The position numbers and the translations under genes were made by a program. The notes beneath the pieces were generated by a model, which ran no database searches, was not told where the DNA came from, and saw only the letters and a program-made list of their open reading frames with translations. This document shows, piece after piece, positions 1,469-15,693 of a stretch of 15,693 nt of DNA. The DNA is from a virus (taxonomy: Duplodnaviria; Heunggongvirae; Uroviricota; Caudoviricetes), in IMG/VR virus record IMGVR_UViG_2778261355_000012. One strand, given 5' to 3'. Position 1 is the stretch's first letter. Each line of letters opens with the position of its first letter.

Positions 1469-1753
1469 CCGCAACCGCTCCGGCTTCTTCCAGTGGTAAG
1501 TTATTTTTTCCTTCTCCCGATACATCTCCACGCGGCGACGGTATGCCAGCATTTCCAGAACGCGGATCCGTATGTTGCGCATATCCACATCATTAAGCTG
1601 GATACCATTACGGCGCATCACTTCCGCTACAACACGCACATAATTTTCGGCGGTCACGCTGTCCGGCTGCGTGGCCTGTTCGTCATGCTGCTGGCTGATT
1701 CCGGTAACGCGGCGGATTATTTTTAGTAGTTCGGTTTCGCTCATTCTCGTCAT
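1463..1753 (-). CDS. hypothetical protein (96 aa), last gene of the packaging operon
   Basis: ORF overlaps the TerL stop by 4 nt (coupled translation); no motif recognised; its 3' end runs into the repeat array. Confidence 0.45.
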   Translation of the reverse strand: MTRMSETELLKIIRRVTGISQQHDEQATQPDSVTAENYVRVVAEVMRRNGIQLNDVDMRNIRIRVLEMLAYRRRVEMYREKEKITYHWKKPERLRR

Positions 1754-3420
1754 ACCCCATCAAACGCCGCAAGCCGCTCTTTGTGGCTGTCGCTCATATC
1801 AAATGCAAATTCCTCATGCTCTGCCTGGAATGTGCCAAACGCCATCAGCGCCGCAACGCTCGGGTCTATCTTGTTGGATGATTTTTTCTTGTTCGGCTTG
1901 ATATTGGCGTTCGCGTCACTCTGCATCACAACATTACTCATTGACCAGGCCAGCACCGGATCGCCACGATGCACAATCACCTTCCGGTTAACAAAAACTT
2001 CGAACGATTTCGCCGCCGGACTGAAACGAAGGTATGTTTGCGGGAACGGCTCCACCTCAAATCCTGCCCCCTGTAGCTGCGTCCTCAGGTGCGTGGCGTT
2101 CCATGTATCGAAGCCCACCAGCCTGATATTGAAATTCTCTGCATCCGCCATGATGTCATCACGGATACGGTCATAATCAATGCAGTCACCCGGTGTTGTG
2201 CGTATCCAGCCCGCCTTTACCCACTGGCGATAGATGGCGCGGTTTTTATTGGCGGGGTTCTGTAGCTGAAATTCCGGCAGATAGTGACGGGAAACCAGCA
2301 TAATCTTTTTACCGACCGGAAAGGCATAGCACACGCTGGAAATATCGCTGGTTGATGATAAGTCCAGCCCCGCGTAGCACTCCTGACCGTATAAATCCGC
2401 CTCCGCGAACGTTCCGGCGCACTCCGCCCATGCACCGTTACCCATCCACGGTGTAGCCCCCTGACACCAGATATTGAATCGCTTGGTGAGCATTTCCACC
2501 CACTGCGACGGAATACCCCGCGCTTTCTGGATGGTTGAGGCCAGTTTTTCACGATCGACGGAAACATCGATATTGGGATTCGCCTTTATCCACATCGCCG
2601 GCTCGTCAACCTCGCTTTCATCATCCAGCTCGTAAATCAGCACGAACATGGATTCGTTCACCTCTTCACCATCCAGTATCTGGCAGCAATAGTCATAGTG
2701 TTGTTTACAGGCTGAAACAACGTTGCTCCCCGATGTGGTGATGGCAAATAACAGCCCCTCCGGACGCGCCCCCATTCCCAGTTCAAGCGCGGAATAAACC
2801 CCGTTGTCAGGGTGCAGGTGATATTCATCCACAATGGCAAGACTCGGGTTTGTACCTTCAATGGTTGCCGCTTTTGCTGCCAGTGGCTTTAACAGGCTGT
2901 TGGTTTTCGGGTGTATCACCTTGTGTGTCTGAATATTTACCCGCTTTCGTAACGGTCGGGATAAAAGGCACATCTGACGCGCATCATCAAACACGATCCG
3001 CGCCTGATCACGACTCACGGCGGCGGTGTAAATATCCTGCTGCCCGTTTTCCATAACCAGAAACCAGTTAGCCAGGATAGCGGCGACCGTGGATTTGGCA
3101 TTTTTTCGCGGCACTTCAATGAATGCGCTGGTGTATTTGCGCCGTCCGGTGGCCTTAACCTTAAAGCCCAGGATGCACGCAAAGGCGAACTGCTGCCACG
3201 GCTCCAGCTCAATGGGGCTACCGCGCATTGCGCCTTTTACGTGCGGACACACCCTGGAAAAGGCAATAAACCGCTCCACGACCTCCGGATCGAACGTGTA
3301 AAGGGGGTTTTCAAGGTCAGAAAAATACCGTTTAACGGCCTGTTTCAGTCGTTTACAGGCCGTAATTTTGCCGTTTTTTACGCCTTCTGCGTACTCATGC
3401 CAGGCGGTCAAGCTCGTCAT
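1750..3420 (-). CDS. terminase large subunit (TerL)
   Basis: 556-aa product with the overall organisation of phage large terminases (N-terminal ATPase, C-terminal nuclease) by recollection; sits after TerS and HNH; overlaps TerS 3' end. Confidence 0.9.
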   Translation of the reverse strand: MTSLTAWHEYAEGVKNGKITACKRLKQAVKRYFSDLENPLYTFDPEVVERFIAFSRVCPHVKGAMRGSPIELEPWQQFAFACILGFKVKATGRRKYTSAFIEVPRKNAKSTVAAILANWFLVMENGQQDIYTAAVSRDQARIVFDDARQMCLLSRPLRKRVNIQTHKVIHPKTNSLLKPLAAKAATIEGTNPSLAIVDEYHLHPDNGVYSALELGMGARPEGLLFAITTSGSNVVSACKQHYDYCCQILDGEEVNESMFVLIYELDDESEVDEPAMWIKANPNIDVSVDREKLASTIQKARGIPSQWVEMLTKRFNIWCQGATPWMGNGAWAECAGTFAEADLYGQECYAGLDLSSTSDISSVCYAFPVGKKIMLVSRHYLPEFQLQNPANKNRAIYRQWVKAGWIRTTPGDCIDYDRIRDDIMADAENFNIRLVGFDTWNATHLRTQLQGAGFEVEPFPQTYLRFSPAAKSFEVFVNRKVIVHRGDPVLAWSMSNVVMQSDANANIKPNKKKSSNKIDPSVAALMAFGTFQAEHEEFAFDMSDSHKERLAAFDGV

Positions 3421-3751
3421 CTTCCTCTGTTTCCGGTGGATTTCTGCGGCGGCTTACCGGGTCAAAACCCAGCAAAGAAGCCATTTTGATCATTATTCTT
3501 TCAGCGTCAGCCTTTGCGCTCAGGGCGGGGTTTCTGCTCTCGCTGCCCTGACTGTTAACAATGCTGAACCCGCGCGTGGCAAGGTCTTCGACGGCTTTGC
3601 GGTATATGGAGTAGTTAACGCAATACAGCTCCAGATTGCTCCAGTCGGCGGGGGTAAGGTCTTCCCGTCCGGAAAGCTGGCGCGATTTTTCCTTCCACTG
3701 CCTGACCGCGATTTCATCCAGGTAAGCGGGGGCTTTTGGTGGTCTTGCCAT
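3395..3751 (-). CDS. terminase small subunit (P27-family-like TerS)
   Basis: Track ORF 3395..3892 trimmed to internal ATG at 3751 (MARPPKAPAYLDEIAVRQWKEK...), an N-terminus typical of P27-type small terminases; placed immediately upstream of TerL. Confidence 0.7.
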   Translation of the reverse strand: MARPPKAPAYLDEIAVRQWKEKSRQLSGREDLTPADWSNLELYCVNYSIYRKAVEDLATRGFSIVNSQGSESRNPALSAKADAERIMIKMASLLGFDPVSRRRNPPETEEDDELDRLA

Positions 3752-4039
3752 GTTCTTTTTTCGCCCAATTATTTTCAAAAAAATTCCCGTGCACAAAAAT
3801 TTGAGGAGGCGGTCGGTGTCCGGCAGGGACGGTTTCGTCCTGAAAACCACCCCCACCCCCTCTGACGGCCTCACCAGCGATTGCGACAACATTCCATGAT
3901 CTCGCGGTCACGGTCGGTTAATTGCTTCGCTGTGGTGCGTTCTGTGCGCCCTGTCCTGTTGGCTTTGTGCCCTGTCTCCTGTGTCTTCCATAAGTCACGC
4001 TGCCTTATCAGTCCACGTATCAGCCTGGTTTGCTCCTGT
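3752..4039. other. non-coding gap between HNH and TerS with a palindrome GGACGgtttCGTCC (~3827-3840) and a C/G-rich tract ccacccccaccccctc (~3847-3862); candidate cos/packaging site
   Basis: No credible ORF fills the gap (track ORFs here are antisense shadows). Position between HNH and TerS parallels cos placement in HK97-like phages. Inference only. Confidence 0.35.
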
Positions 4040-4480
4040 TCAGTCATCATCGCCATACATCCAGTCGTTACGGTGTGCTGCCCGTTCTTCCTGCTCGCGA
4101 TACATGCCCGCCTTACGGTTCGCTTTCGTGGCGGGATCTTCCCGTGTCGTCTTACGGTTGTGGCACGTCTGGCACAATGCCTGGTGGTTCCACTCAGGCC
4201 AGAAGAGAACATCACCGCCGCCATTGATGGGGATGATGTGATCCACCACAAGAGCTGGCGTATAAATCCCCTTAGCCAGACAACGCACGCATAACGGGTT
4301 TTTGCTCAGGTACAGGGCGCGGTATTTGTCCCACTGTCGGGAATACCCGCGCGCGCGGCGGTGTCCCCGTCTGGCATCCTCTGCACGCCATACAGCCCGT
4401 CTGTGCTCTTCACACTTGCCGGACTTCACGCGCTTATTACAGCCCGGCTCAGTGCATCGCCTTAATGGTTGCCACGGCAT
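4040..4480 (-). CDS. HNH endonuclease (packaging-associated)
   Basis: 146 aa with paired Cys motifs (CTEPGCNKR...C...C...CHNRK) and the His/Asn core (VVDHIIPINGGG...WNHQALCQTCHN) typical of HNH; start overlaps the connector stop (TGATG). Confidence 0.85.
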   Translation of the reverse strand: MPWQPLRRCTEPGCNKRVKSGKCEEHRRAVWRAEDARRGHRRARGYSRQWDKYRALYLSKNPLCVRCLAKGIYTPALVVDHIIPINGGGDVLFWPEWNHQALCQTCHNRKTTREDPATKANRKAGMYREQEERAAHRNDWMYGDDD

Positions 4481-9780: not shown

Positions 9781-11595
9781 TTAATTTTTGCTGTCGTCAT
9801 TTGTGACCGATGCACATGATGGCATCCAGTCTTCTGAATCCTCTGTCAGTGTCACATTTGAACGCAAACCGTGCTTCGTTTTCCGTTTTATATACTCCCT
9901 GCCATATTCCGCCATTGCCCCCGGCATATCTTTACCGAAGCGCGTCAGTGTTACAGGTTTACCGAATCCGTGTGCCCTCATATATGCCAGATAGGCGTGA
10001 TAAAGATACCTGCGCGGACTGAACGGAATAATTTCGGCATTACCCACTAACAGACCATCACACATTACCGACGACATGAGATAGCCACAGAAGTCCACCA
10101 GCGAATCGCCCTCGCGTTTTATCACCAGAGCTTCTTCTGATTTCTGCTGCTCATACAGCAGGCGTTTAGCTTCGTCCTGGTCAGAAAAACGAGTAAGCAG
10201 ATGGCGAATCACAACCGCCAGCTCTCCTTCTATTTTTTCTGCCAGCATGGGGTCGCGCTCGTTCTCCGGTACAACCTCCGAAAAATTGAATATCACCCGA
10301 CGACGTGAGATCCCCCCGCTGCGGTCACTGAATGACATGGCGTTATTGTTCACCGCCAGCACGACCGCCTGAATGCGTGTTGAGTAGGGGGCTTTATGCT
10401 TCGGGTCGATTGCCACCTTGTCACCGCCTGTAATGGCCTTAATTCCTGCGCCATCACCAGCGTAGCGGGTCATATCCGGCATGATAATCAGCGAAAAGCC
10501 AACCACTAACGCGCGTTCCCTTGCATCTTCCAGCGCCTTCATGCTTGCCGATACTGTGTTGGCCTTACCCGCCAGCATGGTGCAAATCTCCGCCATCACG
10601 CTTTTACCACTTCCCCCTGGACCTGTTACCTCAATGAATAACTGCCAGTCGTACCGGTTCGCCAGCACCATGAATAATGCAGCCAGCACGCGATCCGTCT
10701 TGCGGTCATTCTCTGCCACCGAGCGGCGTAACCACTTCCAGAAATTCGGCGCATGTGTTGCCAGCGTTTCCCCCTCTGCTGGTGGGCTGAAAGGTAATTC
10801 ACTGGCAATTAACAACCAGTCGTTTTTGTTATGCTCCCGAAAATTACCTGTTCTGGTATCAAATACCCCGTTACTGAATCCAATCAGGTTACGGGCTGTA
10901 TTCCCCATTACAGGCAAACTTAACTTCATGGTATCGACCGCCGATTTAATGGCGTTCTGCGAATAGCTGATCTCCGCATCAATGAAAATCTGCGCCATAG
11001 CACGCTGTAACTCTTTATCCTGAATCGGCTCCCATACAACGCCGTTGTAATGGTGAACAGTGTCAGAGTCGGCATGAATCGCCAGTTCACCGCCATAATG
11101 TGCCAGGAGAACTTCGCCGCGCTGGCTTGCTCCCATCTGGTTAAGCGCCAGTGGTGCGGCGCTGTCTTCTGTTTTTTTCTTAACAGGAAGCTGAATCACC
11201 AGACCATCAGAAAGATTCTGGCGCTCACGGGCCAGATATTCGCGCCAGTTCTGCACCTCCTGGCCGTGCATACCCTCAGGATAAAAATTTGCATCCTGTA
11301 CGCCTGCCGCCGCCAGCTTCTGACCAATCGCCTTTATCATTACTGGCGCAAGATATCCGGCCCTGAATATGCGCACGGATTTTCTGCCTTCCGGCACAAT
11401 TTGCAGCTTATCCAGTTCGGATAACTGCTGCTCCCCAAGCCACACAGGAGGCTCATTATCTCCGGCCATACGCGCGTCATGTTCCTGCCATTGTTTTGCG
11501 TGTGACCAGGCATCACTACCCGCAAAAATAATGACTTCTGTTTCTTTGTGTTTTATGCCGCGTAACTGCTGTTTTACGTTCGGTGCCAGTTTCAT
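9781..11595 (-). CDS. replication initiator with primase/helicase-type NTPase domain (P4 alpha-like / D5-family)
   Basis: 604 aa; Walker A GPGGSGKS mid-protein; iteron field lies immediately 3' of the gene; start overlaps the upstream 95-aa ORF (ATGA). Confidence 0.8.
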   Translation of the reverse strand: MKLAPNVKQQLRGIKHKETEVIIFAGSDAWSHAKQWQEHDARMAGDNEPPVWLGEQQLSELDKLQIVPEGRKSVRIFRAGYLAPVMIKAIGQKLAAAGVQDANFYPEGMHGQEVQNWREYLARERQNLSDGLVIQLPVKKKTEDSAAPLALNQMGASQRGEVLLAHYGGELAIHADSDTVHHYNGVVWEPIQDKELQRAMAQIFIDAEISYSQNAIKSAVDTMKLSLPVMGNTARNLIGFSNGVFDTRTGNFREHNKNDWLLIASELPFSPPAEGETLATHAPNFWKWLRRSVAENDRKTDRVLAALFMVLANRYDWQLFIEVTGPGGSGKSVMAEICTMLAGKANTVSASMKALEDARERALVVGFSLIIMPDMTRYAGDGAGIKAITGGDKVAIDPKHKAPYSTRIQAVVLAVNNNAMSFSDRSGGISRRRVIFNFSEVVPENERDPMLAEKIEGELAVVIRHLLTRFSDQDEAKRLLYEQQKSEEALVIKREGDSLVDFCGYLMSSVMCDGLLVGNAEIIPFSPRRYLYHAYLAYMRAHGFGKPVTLTRFGKDMPGAMAEYGREYIKRKTKHGLRSNVTLTEDSEDWMPSCASVTNDDSKN

Positions 11596-14472: not shown

Positions 14473-15693
14473 CTATATCGATACAGGTAACAGCACCACA
14501 TTTTGATGATTACCCGCCAGAAGTTCTAATCGGCCATACCACTTATTCAACGCATCCATTTTCTCAGGTAAGTACAGACTACGGTTATAAATAGCCATCA
14601 CCCCCGGCAATGCATGACCAAGTAAAAGCTCTACAATATGTGGCGCAATACCCATATTATTTAAACCTGTAGAAAATGTTCTGCGCAAATCGTGAAGCGT
14701 CCATGGCTCATTATGATGAAAATCTTTGTATAGCCTACGCCCTTTAAGCGAAGCAGCCTGGCGGGAACGTTCTTCACCCAGTACAATTCCTGTTTTTCCC
14801 GTTTCCTTTTTTAGATCCTCAATCCATGGGCGAATGCCCTCTGGAATTGGACGAACTATTTTTTCACGAGTTTTGCTGTGTTCTTTAGGAACCGTCCAAA
14901 TCCATGACTGAAAATCCCATTCACTCCACCGGGATAATCTTACTTCCATTGTTCGCGCCCCAAACAGCACAAGCAACTTAAGCAGACGAAGATAATAAAA
15001 TTGCTGTTCATCGCTATAAGTACACCGCCATACATCAGCTAACTCACTATCTGACAGCACCCTATCACGCTGCCCCGATGGTTGCCCTACATCCTGGATT
15101 GTCATAAAAGCCAGGGCATCACATGAGGCATAACGGCGAACCTTGCAGAATCTTAAGGCCTGTTTACAAATCTGGAACATTCGCCCGGCAGTGATTGGCC
15201 TGGACTGGTTAATTTCATCAAAACATGCCACCCAGTGACGCGTTTCACACCGGGATAACGGATAGTGGCCAAGACGCGGATAAATATGCTTACGTAATTG
15301 CGCCCGCACCAGTTCCTCGTCACTACGTTTTTTTCTTGCGTAATGAATTAGCCAATATTCAAGGGCATCATGGACAGTTACGGGGTTAAGGTTTTCTTCT
15401 GCGCTAAGTTCTAATTCAAGTCGTGGATTCAGCCCGTCCGCATACCATTTTCGGCATAGTTCCCTCTTCTCCCTAGCCATTTTCAACGACATGTCAGGGT
15501 AACGCCCAAGAACAATGCGCTCTAACTTGCTCCCACGCCCACCAAGACGATAAGAGAAAACCCAACTAATGCATCCCATCATGGATACTTTGATGCTTAA
15601 TCCTTCACCATCCGCAATGGTAATTACTGAATCCCGCTTTACGCCGAGAAGCGATCTTAATTTTTTATCACTCAGTTTGTTTGTGCCAGCCAC
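14473..15693 (-). CDS. int: tyrosine integrase, P4-type (5' end at window edge)
   Basis: N-terminal P4-integrase-type arm-binding pattern (KLSDKKLRSLL...DGEGLSIKV...WVFSYRLGG...LGRYPDMSLKMAREKR); C-terminal catalytic signature HDLRRTF...LLGH...AIYNRSLY. First codon is GTG exactly at the edge, so it is either a GTG start or slightly truncated. Confidence 0.92.
   Translation of the reverse strand: MAGTNKLSDKKLRSLLGVKRDSVITIADGEGLSIKVSMMGCISWVFSYRLGGRGSKLERIVLGRYPDMSLKMAREKRELCRKWYADGLNPRLELELSAEENLNPVTVHDALEYWLIHYARKKRSDEELVRAQLRKHIYPRLGHYPLSRCETRHWVACFDEINQSRPITAGRMFQICKQALRFCKVRRYASCDALAFMTIQDVGQPSGQRDRVLSDSELADVWRCTYSDEQQFYYLRLLKLLVLFGARTMEVRLSRWSEWDFQSWIWTVPKEHSKTREKIVRPIPEGIRPWIEDLKKETGKTGIVLGEERSRQAASLKGRRLYKDFHHNEPWTLHDLRRTFSTGLNNMGIAPHIVELLLGHALPGVMAIYNRSLYLPEKMDALNKWYGRLELLAGNHQNVVLLPVSI

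Follow-up and report, generated by a model that had tools for sequence, protein, structure and literature searches.

Capsid-forming PICIs (cf-PICIs) package only their own DNA in self-made capsids and spread across genera. Their hnh-terS-terL packaging module has already been described, and the succession of capsid, protease, portal and connectors, followed by hnh-terS-terL, is the order found in Proteobacterial cf-PICIs (Alqurainy et al., 10.1101/2022.09.08.507074). In EcCIEDL933, mutants in genes of the packaging module lose transfer, packaging of the island and of its helper is mutually exclusive, and the packaged DNA forms a discrete, island-sized band (10.1101/2022.09.08.507074). Cohesive cos ends have been reported for one cf-PICI, KpCIDSM30104, whose packaged DNA re-anneals through them (He et al., 10.1101/2025.02.11.637232). 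Among the phages with mapped ends, the minimal TerS-binding site of HK97 extends from +15 to +29 and includes an A-tract, the overhang being of 10 nt (10.1101/2023.07.17.549218), and in the model proposed for this phage the motor is stalled, and cleavage triggered, by TerS bound just past the cut (PMC10359639). In phage SfI, reported to have packaging genes identical to the SfV ones, a 10-nt gap relative to the prophage, 5'-TGCCCGCCCC-3', was disclosed when virion DNA was sequenced by run-off (PMC3636060). In the searchable literature, we found no description of a cf-PICI cos sequence, nor of the cis-acting signal behind the packaging exclusivity of these islands. For HK97-like systems, textbook knowledge would lead one to expect a cos site between hnh and terS, and it is also the feature that a specialist would predict for a cf-PICI from its hnh-terS-terL layout.

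The DNA analyzed here (the window, 15,693 nucleotides) is 100% identical to E. coli ATCC 43886, and its island shows about 85% identity over the segment to the prototype-type island of O157 Sakai/EDL933-type strains. Judged from its sequence, the window corresponds to an EcCIEDL933-like cf-PICI of 15.1 kb, with all island genes on the minus strand. Pfam searches identified the host gene hpt (hypoxanthine phosphoribosyltransferase, 1-537), the large terminase TerL (1750-3411, minus; PF03354 and PF20441), a P27-family small terminase TerS of 118 aa (3395-3751, minus; PF05119, also called by PGAP) and an HNH endonuclease (4040-4480, minus; PF01844), as well as a head-tail connector, a portal, a prohead protease and a major capsid protein. 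To these, the PGAP annotation of ATCC 43886, where the island is situated between hpt and gcd, adds an SSB, a ProQ/FinO protein, an Icd-like protein, an HTH regulator, an integrase (int, 14473-15693) and a primase (9781-11595); no tail or lysis genes appear in the annotation of this identical genome. The island has, then, an integrase and a regulation and replication module with its primase, and its own capsid, protease, portal and connector followed by hnh-terS-terL. A 15-bp direct repeat, CAAAAGTGATACACC, is a candidate att site at positions 597-611, 60 nt past hpt, and its partner copy is found 20 bp past int, immediately outside the window (L001, 25414-25428). Since these repeats flank the island, the unit measures 15,116 bp, within the range of about 10-18 kb used to define cf-PICIs. 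The final island gene ahead of the att site, directly after terL, is a 96-aa ORF (1463-1753, minus) that matches phrog_1561 (E=6e-55), of unknown function.

A preliminary description of this DNA had taken positions 3752-4039, between the HNH and TerS genes, as a non-coding gap of about 290 bp. This part of it had to be abandoned: about 60% of the supposed gap is occupied by a 61-aa gene (3871-4056, minus; PGAP in the identical genome), whose start overlaps the HNH stop and whose product matches phrog_3173 (E=6.6e-26), of unknown function. The frame was intact across 70 distinct nucleotide variants, with indels in multiples of three; pairwise dN/dS in this set had a median of 0.33. With the small gene at 3871-4056 and TerS starting at 3751, the true intergenic region is therefore 3752-3870, that is, 119 bp. 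We also considered, and rejected, a 165-aa TerS ORF (3395-3892) reading through this region: the Pfam match begins only at residue 64, PGAP places the start at 3751 instead, and 33 of 60 relatives do not keep the frame open upstream, 31 of them losing it within 9 codons. The small gene might correspond to the "hypothetical gene 1792" of EcCIEDL933, mutation of which lowered transfer. Its protein is basic, translationally coupled to the HNH stop, and displays a C-terminal motif, RDRE(V/L)MECFRNR(W), in which most alleles show CF and that of the window CC.

Conservation within these 119 bp was studied in an initial alignment that set the window against a Klebsiella element and five divergent E. 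coli islands, and in three larger sets: 80 viral-collection loci picked by TerS protein only, over 120 loci ascertained by Block 1, and 57 metagenome loci picked by Block 2 only. Read on the gene (minus) strand, the region consists of Block 1 (3837-3859; GGGGTGGGGGnnGTTTTCAGGAC, also given as GGGGTGGGGGTGGTTTTCAGGAC), made of a G-run plus GTTTTCAGGAC; a spacer of 19 nt (3818-3836), variable in sequence and fixed in length; Block 2 (3769-3817; ACCGACCGCCTCCTCAAATTTTTGTGCACGGGAATTTTTTTGAAAATAA), with a GC-rich core followed by CTCAAATTTTT and GCACGGnnATTTTTTTGAAAATAA; 17 poorly conserved nucleotides; and the terS start codon. The consensus of Block 2 is ACCnnCnGCCyCCTCAAATTTTTnnGCACGGnnATTTTTTTGAAAATAA (3769-3817). 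Block 1 was exact in 71 of the 81 sequences ascertained by TerS only, the other 10 having 1-3 mismatches, and it was present in all 57 loci ascertained by Block 2, in 56 of them at exactly 31 nt; likewise, the spacer length was invariant in 56 of these 57 independent loci. Mean pairwise identity was 0.93 for Block 1 and 0.85 for Block 2 versus 0.62 for the spacer and 0.52-0.53 for the flanks, the first 60 nt of terS standing at 0.82. The blocks are single-copy in each island, and they reach as far as the Pasteurella islands Pmp7 and Pmp8, which have a TerS 61% identical and keep the G-run and an 80%-identical Block 2; in the comparison with Pmp8, Block 2 identity was 0.80 versus 0.50 for the first 60 nt of TerS. 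The small gene is missing in the Pasteurella islands and in loci L195 and L200, all of which still carry both blocks, so that the conserved unit is about 100 bp of non-coding DNA with a rigid geometry. A conserved hairpin in the variable spacer was tried and dropped, as stems of 3-4 bp could be drawn in many of the variants and not in all.

The closest counterpart with a mapped end was SfV/SfI. The island proteins are homologous to those of SfV, TerS being 36% identical to orf1 (E=7e-21), TerL 30% identical to orf2 over 548 aa (E=2e-79) and HNH 37% identical to orf53 (E=1e-17); orf53 lies at the right end of the SfV genome, and the SfV TerS is also of the P27 family. We located the SfI 10-mer TGCCCGCCCC in the SfV record between the hnh stop and terS, where the gene strand reads GAGGGGAGGGGCGGG, 31 nt, TGCCCGCCCC, ATCGTTTTTTTATACCCGCGAAAAATG and, further on, terS. 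The window reads GAGGGGGTGGGGGTGG, 31 nt, CGACCGCCTC, CTCAAATTTTTGTGCACGGGAATTTTTTTG and, further on, terS. Both thus place between hnh and terS a G-run (GAGGGGAGGGGCGGG in SfV and GAGGGGGTGGGGGTGG in the island) 31 nt before a GC-rich 10-mer with a shared core (CCGCC in the window, CCCGCCCC in the Klebsiella island), and both have a T-run and an A/T tract after it. In a global alignment, the whole SfV hnh-terS spacer was collinear with 3752-3870 with a score of 62, versus a mean of 34.7 (sd 5.8) for dinucleotide shuffles (z about 4.7; 0 of 1000 shuffles reached it), a signal part of which is a shared compositional layout. The best local alignments alone were not significant, their scores being reached by 10% of shuffles for SfV and by 38% for HK97. 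The two systems differ in that the island is a 15-kb tail-less satellite whereas SfV and SfI are 37-kb phages, in that the island has the small phrog_3173 gene inserted between hnh and cos, and in the sequences of Block 1 and of the A/T tract; moreover, the end was mapped in SfI, whereas that of the island is predicted by alignment. On the basis of this alignment with TGCCCGCCCC, the predicted cohesive end (cosN) of the island is the 10-nt CGACCGCCTC at 3806-3815 (minus), give or take a few nucleotides.

A similar plan was found in HK97 and in HK106, the helper of EcCIEDL933. The HK106 cos region is identical to that of HK97 over the stretch read, and the HK106 annotation calls the HK97 TerS similar to its own; the HK106 record was re-opened at the terS ATG and, therefore, provides the cos sequence only, with no ends. 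In these phages, a G-run is followed by 32 nt, by CGCCGCCAAA, by the record start and by a T7 tract at +24 to +30, which in HK97 overlaps the minimal TerS site; the T7 tract of the island, counted from the predicted cut, covers +23 to +29. Common to the island, SfV and HK97/HK106 are, accordingly, a G-run, an interval of 31-32 nt, a GC-rich 10-mer and an A/T tract spanning roughly +21 to +30, the G-runs of HK97 and SfV being at the same distance from the cut as that of the island. HK97 and the island also share the order hnh, cos, terS, a homologous HNH (36% identity with gp74, E=6e-17) and a GC-rich cut region (GACCGCCGCCAAA in HK97, GACCGCCTCCTCAAA in the island). In contrast, the sequence of the TerS site is CTAACCCGATTTTTT in HK97 and CACGGGAATTTTTTT in the island, and the island TerS has no detectable sequence similarity to HK97 gp1. 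These differences in TerS and in its putative site would fit separate packaging specificities of helper and satellite. The preliminary description had suggested a satellite-specific cos and a comparison with related islands and helper cos sites as a way to examine it; the comparison agrees with the suggestion, in that the TerS-site sequence of the helper, whose cos is HK97-identical, is a different one.

The relationship to other cos systems is more distant. Phage lambda needs no HNH protein, has a TerS of the Nu1 type and generates a 12-nt 5' overhang. Its cosQ-cosN-cosB arrangement is like that proposed for the island in having an upstream termination element, a site of staggered cutting and a downstream TerS-binding region beside the terminase genes. 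The island TerS belongs to PF05119 (P27) and has an HNH gene adjacent, and its cos resembles that of lambda in logic only. SaPIbov5-type cos SaPIs, P4 and EcCICFT073 with its Rpp are also phage satellites packaged from cos, but they carry the cos of the helper or retarget the helper TerS via Rpp, whereas the present island has its own TerS, TerL and HNH and, very probably, a cos of its own.

A DNA search of phage records yielded a virion-derived sequence of a sister island. The "phage" vB_KppS-Ant (LR881103.1, 16,548 bp) is by gene content a cf-PICI and, judging from the host strain, it is very probably KpCIDSM30104. Its publication presents it as a filamentous ssDNA phage that represents a novel genus. 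The DNA came from particles grown on K. pneumoniae DSM 30104 and was processed with Nextera XT and assembled with SPAdes; the sequence is >99% identical to the DSM 30104 chromosome, and no reordering of the contig is described in the paper (PMC8006926). The record begins at ACGAAAAGG, 22 nt before terS, reading ACGAAAAGGAAAACAGTAAGTT-ATG, and ends in GGGGTGGGGGAGGTTTTCAGGAC, that is, it stops at GTTTTCAGGAC. In the chromosomal copy (ATCC 13883, NZ_KN046818.1), there are 69 extra bp between these two ends, GAACACGAGGGCGCCAGGCACCACCCGCCCCCTCAAATTTTTTCGCACGGTGATTTTTTTGAAAATAAA, including Block 2. The gap thus brackets the termini of the sister island to the spacer plus Block 2, and the predicted cohesive end falls within the 69 bp that are missing from the record, the Klebsiella island having CACCCGCCCC at the predicted place of the cut. 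A circular or permuted template would give contig ends that overlap, and Ant has a gap instead. We infer that the gap reflects fixed molecular ends, the last 20-40 bp of which were lost in tagmentation, although an assembly dropout could in principle create it as well. After terL, the Ant record has an annotated 766-aa "tape measure" gene (2036-4333) with no counterpart in the window. Besides Ant, the search returned only an unverified contig of 1.6 kb that spans the site uncut, and a 106-kb record, Klebsiella phage P12620-1 (PQ569648.1), with a cf-PICI-like terS and terL start; the sequence upstream of its terS is unrelated, and the record looks chimeric or rearranged. In the Block 2 scan, none of the 57 metagenome loci had a contig ending at the predicted cut. 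Two IMG/VR contigs from draft isolate genomes, L068 and L027, end in the spacer, 22 and 12 nt after Block 1, respectively; they are ambiguous and were not counted as physical ends because an assembly break where the sequence shared between co-resident islands begins is the likelier cause.

We consider it very probable that the 119-bp region 3752-3870 is the cos site of the cf-PICI, of the HK97/SfV type, that is, HNH-associated and with fixed ends. The main proposal of the preliminary description, that the island has its own cos between hnh and terS, is in this way supported by a conserved non-coding signal, by the bracketing of the region by the Ant ends, by the homology of the packaging proteins to those of SfV/SfI and by the collinearity with SfV and HK97. 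The blocks (3769-3859) stand between hnh, with its small gene, and terS, and the packaging proteins have homologues in phages whose cos ends are mapped. Within the region, Block 2 would comprise cosN and cosB, the predicted TerS-binding site being GCACGGGAATTTTTTTGAAAATAA (3769-3792, minus); this cosB prediction is by analogy with HK97, whose TerS has no detectable similarity to that of the island. Block 1, which occupies a position like that of lambda cosQ, may be an upstream cos element with a cosQ-like role. From the run-off gap of SfI and from HK97, we infer that the overhang would be 3'. The exact nick positions, the role assigned to each block and the dependence of cleavage on HNH are likewise putative.

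Two other readings take the region to be a signal of a different kind. Pac sites are in or near terS genes in many phages, and the region could then be a pac from which headful packaging starts near terS with no fixed cohesive ends. We regard this as very improbable, as an HNH gene beside a TerL of the HK97/SfV type is a signature of cos phages, the Ant record shows a gap and no terminal overlap, the sister island has reported cohesive ends (10.1101/2025.02.11.637232), and the packaged DNA of EcCIEDL933 is a discrete island-sized band (10.1101/2022.09.08.507074). The blocks could also be an expression element of terS-terL, such as a promoter, an operator, an attenuator or a translational control, and not a packaging signal. 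They are indeed directly upstream of terS, and the A/T-rich part of Block 2 could resemble a promoter or an UP element. However, no sigma-70-like match was found on the gene strand of the intergenic region, its single terminator-like match is at chance level, it has no Rfam match, and its single-strand fold is not unusually stable (z-score -1.35). Moreover, the least conserved part of the region is the 17 nt beside the start codon, where a signal for ribosome binding would be expected (identity 0.52), and the layout agrees position by position with the mapped cos regions of SfV and HK97. That the blocks serve expression instead of packaging seems to us, on these grounds, unlikely; a dual or secondary regulatory role beside packaging is possible.

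The preliminary description had also drawn attention to a palindrome and to a C-tract. The palindrome, GGACGGTTTCGTCC on the plus strand (GGACG-gttt-CGTCC, 3827-3840), does exist, but it proved to be neither conserved nor beyond chance. It could be thought that this GGACGgtttCGTCC hairpin is the functional core of the region, for example a cleavage or recognition site, given that it is a perfect 5-bp palindrome unique within the window. Palindromes of this kind (5-bp stem, 3-8 nt loop) are, nevertheless, expected by chance in 288 bp: there are three in 3752-4039 versus 1.5 expected, and 21% of dinucleotide shuffles reach three. Its left arm is at the end of Block 1, of which the palindrome takes in the last 4 nt, and its right arm is in the variable spacer. 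EcCIEDL933/Sakai-type islands carry GGACAAACCCGACC in its place; the palindrome is thus lacking in the EcCIEDL933-type islands, which have been studied experimentally, and it is lacking in those of Klebsiella and Pasteurella as well. Finally, the SfI-based alignment puts the cut about 12 nt further towards terS (from 3827 to 3806-3815). We judged the palindrome to be incidental, and there is very little chance that it is the core. The C-tract, ccacccccaccccctc (3847-3862), fared better. It is the G-run of the near-invariant 23-nt Block 1 and, therefore, a conserved element that flanks the predicted cut, some 31 nt upstream of it, and not the cut itself.

If the region is a cos site of the HK97/SfV type, packaging could be envisaged as follows. 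After excision and replication, the P27-family TerS of the island would bind the A/T-tract part of Block 2 (about 3769-3792) and recruit the TerL and HNH of the island, and these would introduce staggered nicks in the GC-rich core just upstream, generating the 10-nt end CGACCGCCTC. The DNA would enter in the order terS, terL, att, int and on to the capsid genes, hnh and the small gene, and packaging would stop at the next cos on the concatemer, where Block 1 (3837-3859) would be met at a fixed distance of 31 nt before the cut. One 15.1-kb unit would thus fill the small capsid made by the island. Since both the cos sequence and the TerS are unlike those of an HK97-like helper, this would explain why packaging of island and helper is mutually exclusive. 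A region of this kind, about 100 bp long and with its cut site and TerS-binding tract predicted, lends itself directly to testing, and it could help to detect cf-PICIs as a compact marker or offer a handle by which their cargo is engineered. We also entertain, as a speculation with perhaps a small chance of being right, that Block 1 is an undescribed termination or recognition element of HNH-dependent cos systems, which in cf-PICIs may be read by the phrog_3173 protein or by HNH. If this were true, such a reading would add a second satellite-specific layer beyond TerS and cosB.

Several minor features were observed around Block 1. An inverted repeat, GGTTT-N8-AAACC, is present at 3831-3848, inside and just after the block, and the equivalent place in SfV has GGTCA-N8-TGACC, which would represent two compensatory changes with respect to the island in this one comparison. 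A single-strand fold pairs the G-run with the cut-site run, the fold being no better than those of shuffles. Within 3806-3862, the G-run of Block 1 imperfectly matches the reverse complement of the C-rich stretch where the cut is predicted, with agreement at 8 of 10 positions between GAGGGGGTGG and the reverse complement of CCGCCTCCTC, and in SfV the GGGGCGGG of the G-run is the exact reverse complement of the cohesive-end core CCCGCCCC.
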